Shown here one piece after another: positions 2,134-19,908 of a stretch of 64,000 nucleotides of DNA. The first letter of the stretch is position 1, and every line of letters begins with the position of its first letter. The DNA is from a virus: IMG/VR virus record IMGVR_UViG_3300044630_002434, positions 32,001-96,000 of that record. One strand, 5' to 3'. The notes under the pieces were generated by a model that did no database searches, was not told the origin of the DNA, and was given only the letters and a program-made list of their open reading frames with translations. A program made the translations under genes and the position numbers.

Positions 2134-2174
2134 AAAACTATTATAGAGTATTAACCTGACTTTGTCAAGTTAAA

Positions 2175-2300
2175 CGCCAGACGCGCCACCGAAAGGGGTT
2201 AAGGTGACGCGCCTAGCATTTGTGAGTGGGGAGAAAGGGGGGCAACCCCACTCGTATTCGGAGCATAGGGAGAAGGGAGTAAACCCTTGCTCTACGAACT
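2175..2300 (-). ncRNA. candidate three-hairpin small RNA with C-rich anti-SD loops
   Basis: Stems at 2257-2298, 2224-2253 and 2175-2218; loops UUUACUCCCUUCU, UUGCCCCCCUUUCU, UUAACCCCUUUC; G-U pairs work only on the minus strand; extended -10 TGcTAAAGT at about 2306-2314; no credible ORF. Confidence 0.7.
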
Positions 2301-2734: not shown

Positions 2735-2908
2735 TTATCTAACAACCGTGCCGTTCCAGTCTGACGGTAGTAGGTATTTAGCCTTCAATGAGTCGTGACA
2801 GGTATCTACAACTATCTGACAAACATCATCTATTATGTGTTCGCCTATCCCGTCAAGGTAGGCTCTTAAATTTTCCTGCAACTGTTCTTGCAAATCTTTA
2901 ATGCTCAT
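2735..2908 (-). CDS. hypothetical protein (57 aa, MSIKDLQ...)
   Basis: Translated by hand; SD GAAAGGAG; stop abuts the next -35 box. Confidence 0.7.
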   Translation of the reverse strand: MSIKDLQEQLQENLRAYLDGIGEHIIDDVCQIVVDTCHDSLKAKYLLPSDWNGTVVR

Positions 2909-2985
2909 TTATTTCTCCTTTCATAAAAATAAATAAAAGTTCCCCGACCCTAAATTTCCAAAATTATCTAGGGGCGGGGAATTCT

Positions 2986-3180
2986 TTAGTTGTCGTTAAT
3001 ACCTAGCAAAGCGAAAATTTCATCTTCGTTTAAGACAGTAACCTTTTCTCCACTATCATCAACAATCTTTACGCTAGTCACGCGGTAAGAGTTAGCAACC
3101 AAGTCACGAACTTCTTGCGCCGTGTTAGCGGTAAAACTGTATTCGTTATCTTTCGACTTCATTGTTACGTTGTAAGCCAT
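2986..3180 (-). CDS. hypothetical protein (64 aa, MAYNVTM...)
   Basis: SD AGAAGGGAG; hairpin downstream. Confidence 0.75.
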   Translation of the reverse strand: MAYNVTMKSKDNEYSFTANTAQEVRDLVANSYRVTSVKIVDDSGEKVTVLNEDEIFALLGINDN

Positions 3181-3237
3181 TTCGTTCTCCCTTCTTGGCT
3201 CTACCCTTTCCGCACTTTGCGGAAAAGTTTTCAGTTT

Positions 3238-3508
3238 ATGAAGTAGGTAGGTGGCTCTCTCAACCACCTGTATGCGCTTCCCCACGCTTCCTATTCGGCT
3301 ACCTACTTCAGTTTTGACTGGCGAACTACGCACCGCACTCCAGTTGTAGTTGTCTTATCTAGTGCAAGACCAGTCAAGTCTTAATAAAGTGAGCCTTGGT
3401 CTGCAATCATTGTTAGGTAGTTGTAGTCAGGCTATTTGCCTTTTCCGTTCACTAACGACCCGTTACCCGTTTATCCTCGGCACTCACTTCGTATCTCTAT
3501 TTAGTTAT
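3238..3508 (-). ncRNA. candidate multi-domain structured RNA (about 270 nt)
   Basis: Own promoter TTGCGA-17-TAGACT (3515-3543); long-range helices 3239-3250/3299-3310, 3314-3321/3370-3377, 3387-3393/3483-3489; no SD-led ORF. Confidence 0.6.
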
Positions 3509-3544
3509 AACCCTAGTCTATCATACTAGGTCTGCTTTCGCAAG

Positions 3545-3623
3545 TCCCAAGAGTAGGAATCGAACCTACCGTGCCAAAGCGAGTGATTTACAGTCACCTT
3601 CCCCACCTTGGGGAATCCTTGGG
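3545..3623 (-). tRNA. tRNA-Tyr(GTA), atypical
   Basis: Acceptor CCCAAGG/TCTTGGG+A, anticodon arm GGTGA-CTGTAAA-TCACT, T arm GTAGG-TTCGATT-CCTAC, long variable region, no encoded CCA; own promoter 3643-3671. Confidence 0.85.
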
Positions 3624-3657
3624 GTTATTTAATTATGAGTCTAGTTTATCATACTAG

Positions 3658-3825
3658 TTATCTCTTGTCAAGTTCCTCGATTAGTCTTGTTCGGCGTACA
3701 ACATCTTTGGTACTCCAACCTTGACCAATCTCGGCGCAAGACTGTAAGTAATAATCTAAGTCTTGAATTTCATCGTGAAGTTCATTGACCGTGAGTTCTT
3801 CTACTTGTTTGTTTCTTGTAAGCAT
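3658..3825 (-). CDS. hypothetical protein (55 aa, MLTRNKQ...)
   Basis: Translated by hand; SD GAAAGGGG; promoter upstream. Confidence 0.65.
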   Translation of the reverse strand: MLTRNKQVEELTVNELHDEIQDLDYYLQSCAEIGQGWSTKDVVRRTRLIEELDKR

Positions 3826-3976
3826 CTTTGCCCCTTTCGTTCCTCAAGTCTATAACATCTACCTGACAAATGCAAGTCACGGGGAAAGATAGTTTAACGA
3901 AGGCGGGACTCAGAATAAAAAATTTCAGTTATGCCCAAAAAAGAAACCCGCATTTCTGCGGGCTTCCATTTTTAGA

Positions 3977-6318: not shown

Positions 6319-6445
6319 CTCTTCCCTTTCTTTGTGGTATTTCCACTAATAGAAATAATACCACATCTCCCTGACATTTGCAAGTTAATTTTTCCGTGTG
6401 GGTTTCCGACCTAAAAAATTTCAGTTATCTAACTCAGCGCAAAAA

Positions 6446-19111: not shown

Positions 19112-19189
19112 GTTTTGGTTCCTCCTTTGCCAAGCAAGGCACGCCGTGTGCCTCGCCGTCTTGATGTATTAACTTTATGATAAAAGTTT

Positions 19190-19474
19190 TTAGATGTCAA
19201 GCGCGTACTCTGGAAGTTCTAGACCTGCTCCGTTTAACGCTCGCCGTATTAAACCTTGCTGACGCGAGGTTGTCTGCGAGTATTTACCTACGTTCAGATA
19301 AGTAACCTGACGTTTTTCTGTGTTTACACTAGCCATCCGTGTTGAGTACGAGTAGATGTCGTAGATGATGTCGCCACTGGCATCAGACCACTTAGAGGCT
19401 TTCATGCTGTGACCGTGCTTGAATGGTTTAAACGCTGGAATAAATTCTTCTGCAATTTCTTTGTAACTAGGCAT
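19190..19474 (-). CDS. conserved phage hypothetical protein (94 aa)
   Basis: Y.IYSY.T...KYS.TTSR.Q motif. Confidence 0.8.
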   Translation of the reverse strand: MPSYKEIAEEFIPAFKPFKHGHSMKASKWSDASGDIIYDIYSYSTRMASVNTEKRQVTYLNVGKYSQTTSRQQGLIRRALNGAGLELPEYALDI

Positions 19475-19560
19475 TTCTTAGTTCCCTTCTGTTGACGTGT
19501 CTCATCAACAAGAGCAACTCTATCATACCAACCTGACATCCGTCAACTCAGGGCACGCCG

Positions 19561-19908
19561 TTAAATTTCTTCAGGGTCAAGGTCAAAAAGATTTTCTTCG
19601 ACCATTCCCCAGAAAGTTTCGAAGGTCTTGGACTTCTCTTGAAGTTCCTCAATCGGTTCGTTGTACTCAACAACCGTTAGTTCAGGAACATGGTCCTCTT
19701 CGGGTTCGATGTGGTGGCTTTGGTAAATGTAGTCTCCGTCTTCGGTAATCAGGTACATGATTACGTACGCGCCACATTCGTTCTCGAATATGACTTGGTA
19801 CATTTTGGTCAACGGGTCGTAGATAGGGCATGACACAGAAAGCATGTCGTGCATGTAGGTCCCTTTGTGGATGATACGGCTTGGGTGAATCTTGTGGCGT
19901 TTGTTCAT
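19561..19908 (-). CDS. hypothetical protein (115 aa)
   Basis: Leaderless ATG just below promoter 19915-19943. Confidence 0.6.
   Translation of the reverse strand: MNKRHKIHPSRIIHKGTYMHDMLSVSCPIYDPLTKMYQVIFENECGAYVIMYLITEDGDYIYQSHHIEPEEDHVPELTVVEYNEPIEELQEKSKTFETFWGMVEENLFDLDPEEI

Follow-up and report, generated by a model that had tools for sequence, protein, structure and literature searches.

The spacer behind a lone tRNA gene in an uncultured phage raises the question of whether it encodes a structured RNA and, if so, whether this is one molecule, several smaller ones or the leader of the next gene. Phage tRNA clusters have been a source of unexplained small stable RNAs since species 1 and 2 of T4. 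The initial annotation of the present locus had proposed a single RNA of about 270 nt with three domains, its own promoter and a kissing loop; it pointed to GOLLD and ROOL as large phage ncRNAs often found beside tRNA genes, did not recognize this RNA, and offered a regulatory leader for the gene at 3180 as the alternative. Our analysis makes it highly likely that the spacer holds a genuine structured RNA array on the minus strand with independently selected modules, here called A, B1 and B2.

The window, by which we mean the whole 64,000-nt stretch that was analyzed, comprises bases 32001-96000 of a 119.7-kb (119,711-base) IMG/VR virus record with a completeness estimate of 89%. Its large terminase has its best match in Actinomycetia phage DSL-LC01 (76.8% identity), followed by Microbacterium and Gordonia phages, and this ranking points to an uncultured lake phage of actinobacteria as the source. 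The sole tRNA gene that ARAGORN calls in the 64-kb window is tRNA-Tyr, and the array fills most of the 363-nt spacer between it and a 64-aa open reading frame (ORF64) that starts at 3180. The array, tRNA-Tyr and all surrounding genes are carried by the minus strand; the locus belongs to the early region and is 40 kb away from the terminase gene.

The transcription unit

The features of the locus, from the tRNA promoter onward and all on the minus strand, are the following.

3643..3671, minus: promoter P1 of tRNA-Tyr (TTGACA, 17 nt, TAAACT)
3641-3657, minus: palindrome CTAGT-N7-ACTAG over the -10 of promoter P1, followed by the leader CATAATTAAATA
3544..3623, minus: tRNA-Tyr, anticodon GUA
3515..3543, minus: promoter P2 of the RNA array, sigma-70-like (TTGCGA at 3543..3538, 17-nt spacer, TAGACT at 3520..3515)
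3513-3529, minus: palindrome CTAGT-N7-ACTAG over the -10 of promoter P2, with ATAACTAAATAGAGA following P2
3494..3508, minus: conserved transcribed leader (A)TAACTAAATAGAGA
3383..3493, minus: module A, 111 nt, closing stem 3387-3395 with 3481-3489
3312..3382, minus: module B1, three-way junction
3239..3310, minus: module B2, three-way junction with a 12-bp closing helix
3207..3227, minus: hairpin UUUUCCGC-AAAGU-GCGGAAA (z -2.80), of the type that opens early mRNAs in this phage group
2986..3195, minus: Shine-Dalgarno sequence AAGAAGGGAG and ORF64, without a promoter of its own
2925..2976, minus: long hairpin followed by a U-rich tract, where transcription from P2 likely ends

The proposal that the RNA has its own promoter beside the tRNA is borne out by P2, which lies right after tRNA-Tyr; it was read by eye from the sequence and was not listed by a consensus promoter scan, and the hairpin at 2925..2976 was likewise read by eye and is absent from that scan. 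P2 is kept in three related loci (G001, L009 and L010) and is present in two copies in a fourth (L007). A search of all 119,711 bases places both the palindrome CTAGT-N7-ACTAG and the leader ATAAYTAAATA at exactly two positions, one ahead of the tRNA and the other ahead of the array. This class of promoter and leader is thus reserved for the tRNA and the array in this phage, and we therefore read the region as a stable-RNA locus. The same leader precedes B1 in G001, a further module (C) in L007, and A in L007 and G003. No terminator was found between tRNA-Tyr and the array, so read-through from promoter P1 is also possible, and since ORF64 lacks its own promoter it is transcribed from P2 in this phage. 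The hairpin at 3207..3227 has counterparts at the equivalent place in L009 and L010.

Six RNA-library runs hold part of the stretch. Three of them, each from a different study, gave contigs that match 3131-3362 (from B1/B2 to the ORF), 3297-3479 (from A to B1) and 3573-3807; neither strand nor ends can be read from these contigs, and they may stem from phage DNA in such libraries. We take them as a weak hint of expression of the array, and window regions lacking such cover are uninformative either way.

Strand and coding potential

The RNA is on the minus strand, as follows from the orientation of the neighboring genes and the tRNA, the better fold on that strand and the presence of strand-specific G-U pairs. 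The whole spacer (3181-3543) folds at -103.2 kcal/mol on the minus strand (z -3.07, with 1 of 100 dinucleotide shuffles as good) and at -87.3 kcal/mol on the plus strand (z -2.09, 2 of 100); the plus-strand z values of the individual modules are -1.65 (A), -0.64 (B1) and -3.34 (B2). Module A keeps the G-U pair U19-G110 in five of five sequences and G42-U99 and G43-U98 in four of five, and B1 keeps U44-G52 in all four of its sequences. These pairs are valid on the minus strand only, since the plus strand would have A-C mismatches in their place.

The array is noncoding, because single-base indels separate the homologues. These indels also led us to reject the hidden reading frames that we considered, namely, a 115-aa GTG frame at 2986-3333 and several short plus-strand frames.

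Relatives of the array

Pattern scans of viral, metagenome and genome contigs returned as relatives only G001, L007, L008/G003, L009 and L010, while L012 and L014-L018 were discarded as chance matches inside coding DNA. Scans anchored on the proteins of two flanking ORFs gave only G001, and the 55-aa ORF upstream has six relatives, each at least 87% identical. In addition, 11 DNA runs from lake water that carry no flag as the potential origin of the phage DNA share 64-97% of the words of the stretch. The five related phage and metagenome loci differ in the subset of modules that they carry: B1 and B2; A and B1; A, B1 and B2; and, in two cases, A without B1 or B2. In G001, which is 96 to 98% identical to the window, the leader joins B1 directly and module A is missing as an exact indel (window positions 3383-3493). 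The metagenome contig L009 has the fullest order, with the tRNA, promoter, leader, A, B1, B2, the hairpin, a structured module D and an intrinsic terminator, and L010 has A and a divergent B1, no B2, and then the hairpin, module D and the terminator. L007 (about 82% identical) carries the tRNA and a promoter-leader-C unit, followed by a second promoter and leader with A. Its module C is an unrelated structured stretch of 290 nt (z -4.38); the end of C resembles a tRNA cloverleaf, which goes uncalled by ARAGORN, and a further copy of the promoter comes next. In G003 (loci L008 and L022), A is the only one of these modules; it has the same leader, sits between two protein genes and has a copy of an ordinary early promoter on each side. 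A contig from a lake DNA run carries A, matching 3387-3614, and is unlike the window beyond 3387.

With covariance models of B1 (R1) and A (R2), each record of G000-G003 yielded one copy and no paralogues; A has a single copy in G000, in G002 and in G003 and none in the 110.9-kb G001 record. An apparent extra copy in G002 (12.9 bits, E 0.3) coincides with a promoter and the start of a gene and is probably a chance match. Among GenBank phages, blastn gave no match to 3150-3660. The closest GenBank relative, DSL-LC01, has no tRNA-Tyr, no module motifs and no match to R1 or R2 in the 45 kb examined, and its tRNA-Pro/tRNA-Arg spacer looks coding (fold z -0.29).

Since relatives carry only subsets, the three domains are independently inherited modules that are gained, lost or swapped among related lake actinophages. 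The idea of a single RNA of about 270 nt with three obligate domains does not survive this comparison: G001 lacks 3383-3493, L010 lacks the domain closed by the 12-bp helix, and L007 and G003 have the third domain and neither of the others.

Structure of the modules

Every module has its own closing helix, and A/U-rich linkers connect one module to the next. The secondary-structure elements first noted at the locus are all present in the sequence where they had been placed, namely, helices of 12 bp (3239-3250/3299-3310), 8 bp (3314-3321/3370-3377) and 7 bp (3387-3393/3483-3489), the hairpins 3324-3329/3346-3351 and 3352-3356/3366-3370, and the loops GCACT (3335-3339) and AGTGC (3361-3365), which had been given in plus-strand letters, the transcript being the minus strand. 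Comparison with dinucleotide shuffles gave a divided outcome, the fold holding up for the whole spacer, B1 and B2 and failing for A. The demand for covariation among homologues was likewise answered for A and B1, with five double changes each, and B2 was uninformative.

Within the closing stem of module A, RNAalifold on five sequences places the inner helices GGU/ACC, GGUC/GAUU and GUUAG/CUAAC and a hairpin GGC/GCC. In these same five sequences, from which the structure was derived, 96.8% of the cells of the 25 pairs are paired and five pairs are changed on both sides (three in the closing stem, one in GGUC/GAUU and one in GUUAG/CUAAC). Alone (3384-3493) and on the minus strand, A is not significantly more stable than its dinucleotide shuffles (z -0.98, 33 of 200 as good).

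Module B1 is a three-way junction with the following parts.

3370-3377 with 3314-3321, minus: helix P1 (8 bp)
3366-3369 with 3353-3356, minus: hairpin H1 (4 bp)
3346-3351 with 3324-3329, minus: lower part of hairpin H2 (6 bp)
3342-3344 with 3332-3334, minus: upper part of hairpin H2 (3 bp), above an internal loop
3361-3365 with 3335-3339, minus: loop-loop kiss (5 bp)

The two hairpins differ in length (4 bp against 6+3 bp), and there is no equivalent of an anticodon arm. Loop 2 is the 7-nt GGAGUGC once the upper H2 helix is counted, and the junction strands are 0, 1 and 2 nt long. An arrangement of H1 and H2 as side-by-side stacks bridged at the top seems geometrically plausible, since H1 plus the kiss (4+5 layers) and H2 (6+3 layers and an internal loop) would be of about the same height; the kiss may also form between molecules instead of within one. 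Without counting the kiss, B1 (3312-3380) on the minus strand folds better than most of its dinucleotide shuffles (z -2.07, 5 of 200 as good).

Module B2 is the most stable of the three on the minus strand (z -5.46, with 0 of 200 dinucleotide shuffles as good). Its closing helix encloses the hairpins GCGU/GCGC (loop GGGGAA) and GGUGGU/GCCACC (loop UGAGAGA). B2 is found in the window, G001 and L009 and is absent from L010; the direct repeat AACTGAA flanks it in the window (3307-3313 and 3230-3236) and is single in L010. The three copies differ at one unpaired position inside the module and at two linker positions in the 6-nt flanks, and because they are so nearly identical and hold no covariation information, the B2 structure is a purely thermodynamic prediction. 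We also considered B2 as a sponge for a candidate sRNA at 2172-2298 (purine-rich against CU-rich loops) and rejected this, since 42 of 100 shuffled B2 sequences were as good in duplex energy.

Relation to ORF64

The array could act in cis as the 5' leader of the 64-aa gene at 3180, for example as a riboswitch, an attenuator, or an untranslated region that stabilizes the mRNA or gates the ribosome-binding site. There is no promoter between B2 and ORF64 in the window or in G001, so the ORF is transcribed through the array, and the RNA-library contig 3131-3362 joins B1/B2 to the start of the ORF. The shape of B1 adds to the case. Purine-riboswitch aptamers consist of a P1 helix and two side-by-side hairpins with a loop-loop contact, and B1, with its P1 and paired-loop hairpins, resembles this tuning-fork outline. 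The likeness is one of outline only: the junction strands of B1 appear to leave no pocket for a ligand, its kiss consists of five Watson-Crick pairs, and the array has neither a family match, to riboswitches or otherwise, at E <= 10 nor a conserved downstream gene. Nor does any known function of ORF64 tie it to a ligand. Module A, for its part, does contain internal loops that are invariant.

The relatives also speak against a leader. ORF64 has no tblastn match at E <= 1e-3 in L009 or L010, in both of which four neighboring ORFs were found, and these two loci have module D and a terminator where the window has ORF64. Since they keep A and B1 (and, in L009, B2), lack ORF64 and end at a terminator, a leader dedicated to ORF64, as had been suggested for the gene at 3180, is unlikely. 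A conserved link of the array to one downstream gene was not found either: A occurs in three gene contexts, and in L007 and G003 the genes that come after it are unrelated and have promoters of their own. We therefore consider a cis-acting leader an unlikely account of the array as a whole, with a cis role possible in the window phage and G001, where ORF64 follows directly.

Decay or selection

Another reading, to which we give slightly less credence than to the cis-acting leader, is that the array is structured debris, made of decaying duplicates of tRNA genes and promoters that have been shuffled by recombination and have no function. The modules come and go freely and a 7-nt direct repeat bounds B2, the 5' strand of B1 begins with GACTTGAC, like the -35 region after each tRNA-type 3' end, and module C of L007 ends in its uncalled tRNA-like cloverleaf with a promoter copy.

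The pattern of substitution argues against decay. Between the window and L010, 18 of the 64 columns of B1 differ (28%), with helix P1 identical and the adjacent module A 94% identical between the same two loci. Sixteen of the 18 differences fall in paired columns, where pairing is restored, the loop-loop contact included. The interior of B1 has thus been rewritten in L010 with its pairing scheme, kiss included, kept. Across four sequences, 96.1% of the cells of the 26 pairs of B1 are paired and there are five compensatory double changes, all of them from the one sequence L010. Two are in the kiss (21-51, GC to AU, and 23-49, AU to GC) and three in H2 (36-61, 37-60 and 43-53). Control pairings with slid partners gave zero or one double change, and the observed value was reached in 1 of 500 shuffles. 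The 5-nt complementarity of the loops is by itself weak, with an estimated chance of about 6% for loops of 9 and 16 nt, and it is the covariation in L010 that backs the kiss; the kissing loop that had been predicted from the window is retained through these two double compensatory changes. B1 fits a closing stem with two loop-paired hairpins that have been kept through compensatory change.

Module A keeps long invariant unpaired runs, in its internal loops, at 83 to 90% overall identity and in three genomic contexts, which argues against debris; since these long runs are unpaired and invariant, they suggest a recognition surface. Taken over the few lineages at hand, these comparisons indicate that selection has acted on RNA pairing in both A and B1, the kiss among them, as the differences in B1 sit in paired columns with the pairing restored.

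Comparison with known phage RNAs

No family of known RNAs claims the array, in agreement with the earlier failure to recognize it. Rfam 15 (4,227 models) at the gathering threshold gave no matches in the whole window and none in five related loci. Over 2900-3900 at E <= 10, no model matched the spacer, and the tRNA itself was matched; two weak matches to snoRNA models (E 0.32 and 2.3) fell at 3670-3808 and 2935-3043, on the ORFs at either flank. The STnc100 model had no match in 2900-3900 at E <= 10, the tRNA clan had none on 3181-3543 at E <= 10, and at E <= 5 there was no array match in L009 or in L007 6050-6850. Words reminiscent of 5S rRNA, SRP RNA and RNase P in modules A and D, and a likeness to the glutamine riboswitch, were dropped, no Rfam match supporting them. 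A full-text literature search, judged by titles and abstract openings, found no account of this RNA.

The closest parallel in layout is T4, where rnaD (species 2) and rnaC (species 1), of about 120 to 140 nt, follow tRNA-Arg head to tail on the same strand. In the T4 annotation, rnaD lies 1 nt behind tRNA-Arg and rnaC 6 nt behind rnaD, and both are labeled as small, stable RNAs for which no function is listed; the fold of rnaC is strong (z -4.57). The array shares this T4-type layout in being noncoding, directly downstream of a phage tRNA and on the same strand. It differs in having its own promoter and in the presence of its modules varying among relatives. In addition, rnaC ends in a canonical T-arm (GGUUCGAAUCC), whereas the array modules have none, and models R1 and R2 had no match in T4 66000-76000 at E <= 10.

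B1 can also be set beside the pRNA of phi29, a phage three-way-junction RNA with two complementary loops that covary between phages; the pRNA loops form intermolecular pairs, and the molecule works in DNA packaging. B1 likewise has a covarying loop pair, but the array lies in the early region, far from the terminase gene, and has no family match.

GOLLD and ROOL are single units of more than 500 nt. Like them, the array is an unexplained structured RNA beside a phage tRNA, with several closed domains and a kiss that could pair between molecules, and L009 keeps the order A, B1, B2. It is nevertheless very unlikely that the array is one large RNA of this kind, with three domains cooperating and perhaps multimerizing: the whole stretch is about 270 to 320 nt, it consists of three separable modules of 70 to 110 nt with no Rfam match at E <= 10, and the relatives with subsets only show that no domain needs the others.

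A trace less credible still is an element that acts at the level of DNA, such as a replication origin, an operator cluster or an inverted-repeat recombination site. The locus has many inverted repeats, the promoter palindromes are probably regulator-binding and the indel boundaries coincide with repeats. However, the conserved G-U pairs hold for just one of the two strands, a compensated loop-loop contact is meaningless in duplex DNA, and the promoter, the leader and, in relatives, the terminator frame a transcription unit.

The least probable reading is a self-cleaving ribozyme (theta/HDV-like, hammerhead or similar) that trims the 3' trailer of the tRNA, since promoter P2 and not a ribozyme core occupies the bases directly after tRNA-Tyr, B1 is a nested junction with a kiss and not a double-nested HDV fold, inspection of B1 found no hammerhead core (CUGAUGA/GAAA) and no HDV-type or other ribozyme family matched in Rfam at E <= 10. 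In its favor are the pseudoknot in B1 and the position of theta ribozymes, which PMC10879173 describes as adjoining phage tRNAs; the criteria used there place cleavage at +/-5 nt around the tRNA 3' end and require a double pseudoknot of the nested kind.

Proposed role and implications

On balance, and by analogy with T4, we lean toward a stable-RNA locus, with modules that would be set free and work in trans, probably as protein binders. Transcription would start at P2, with read-through from P1 as a further possible source, and the transcript would consist of the short conserved leader followed by A, an irregular stem of about 110 nt with invariant internal loops, B1, an 8-bp stem with two loop-paired hairpins, and B2, a very stable three-way junction. 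Host RNases would cut this precursor at the linkers, and the compact modules would persist as small stable RNAs, as suggested by rnaD and rnaC. The modules would then act in trans by binding a protein, as decoy or scaffold, rather than by antisense pairing, because the invariant bases of A lie in internal loops and the loops of B1 are used in the kiss. In the window phage and G001, where the transcript runs on into ORF64, the array would double as a long structured 5' untranslated region, a link that is not conserved.

A bolder version of the stable-RNA locus, which we regard as rather improbable and a little less likely than the debris reading, is a combinatorial island of mobile RNA cassettes (A, B1 and B2, with C and D in relatives) that recombine at the promoter and leader, each cassette being a decoy for a protein of host defense or an RNA-processing factor. 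The target could be, for example, a tRNA-directed factor, given the partner tRNA-Tyr. If true, such an island would be an RNA counterpart of protein anti-defense islands, and the fast, matched change of the B1 loops inside a fixed P1 would be a specificity switch, possibly with intermolecular pairing like that of pRNA.

Small RNAs in phage tRNA clusters are already a known kind, and the three compact folds found here are apparently undescribed. New within that kind is the cassette-like inheritance with a dedicated promoter and leader. The presence and absence of modules among relatives show the folds to be independent units, one of which has a loop-loop contact backed by covariation, and constructs as small as 70 to 110 nt are suited to structure probing, pull-downs and deletion tests. 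Our findings suggest that abundant freshwater phages trade RNA genes as cassettes, much as they do protein accessory genes.

In the window, the tRNA-Tyr (3544-3624) has C-G as its first pair and, as read, a D arm with a 5-bp stem and a 5-nt loop. When Rfam was run over the window at the gathering threshold, no tRNA was listed. At the E-value threshold, the row retained for this gene was the tRNA-Sec model, which scored 34.3 bits where its cut-off is 47; a lower-scoring overlapping match of the same clan was omitted. The promoter of this tRNA and the promoter of the structured RNA array that follows it both lack the TGTCAGG box, unlike the early promoters, and a palindrome, CTAGT-N7-ACTAG, lies over the -10 element of each:

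3641-3657, palindrome copy in the tRNA promoter
3513-3529, palindrome copy in the array promoter

A scan of the whole 119.7-kb genome found just these two sites, and the palindrome is probably the operator for a regulator specific to the RNA genes of this phage.

Module B2 of the array is bracketed by the 7-nt direct repeat AACTGAA (3307-3313 and 3230-3236), and the related locus L010 has no B2 and a single AACTGAA copy; this pattern is a signature of microhomology-mediated insertion or deletion. The 5' start of module B1 (3371-3378) reads GACTTGAC, which also serves as the -35 of the array promoters, after every tRNA-type 3' end. No usable -10 lies downstream of it at the B1 start, where it may be a relic of promoter duplication.

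Related loci carry other structured RNAs. Module D was not found in the genome of the window and gave no Rfam match; in L010 and a second related locus, the metagenome contig L009, it sits where the window has the 64-aa ORF starting at 3180:

L009 960-1095 and L010 ~930-1075, module D on the minus strand, a structured RNA of ~130 nt followed by an intrinsic terminator

Module C of the related locus L007 is unrelated to the array modules and is terminated by a tRNA-like cloverleaf (~6335-6410, minus strand), in which a 7-bp stem, CCCCUAA/UUAGGGG, is accompanied by three hairpins and followed by an A and then a promoter copy, the same layout as in the tRNA-Tyr and the array promoter. ARAGORN called no tRNA at this cloverleaf, which is possibly a decayed or mimic tRNA. 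In Actinomycetia phage DSL-LC01 (OQ999401.1), the closest GenBank relative by TerL, tRNA-Thr and tRNA-Pro are separated by a 128-nt spacer (19160-19287) that is strongly structured (z -6.26, with 0 of 200 shuffles as good) and carries no annotation; the tRNA-Pro is overlapped by an annotated CDS (19267-19752). The window holds a further candidate:

2172-2298, minus strand, candidate sRNA with three CU-rich hairpin loops

Its fold is very stable (z -7.53, computed for 2150-2330), and no special pairing was found between it and module B2.

In the related record G003 (locus L022), the module A cassette is flanked on both sides by the same early promoter, ATGTCAGGTTAGTGTGGTACAATG, an arrangement that fits cassette exchange via crossovers inside promoters.
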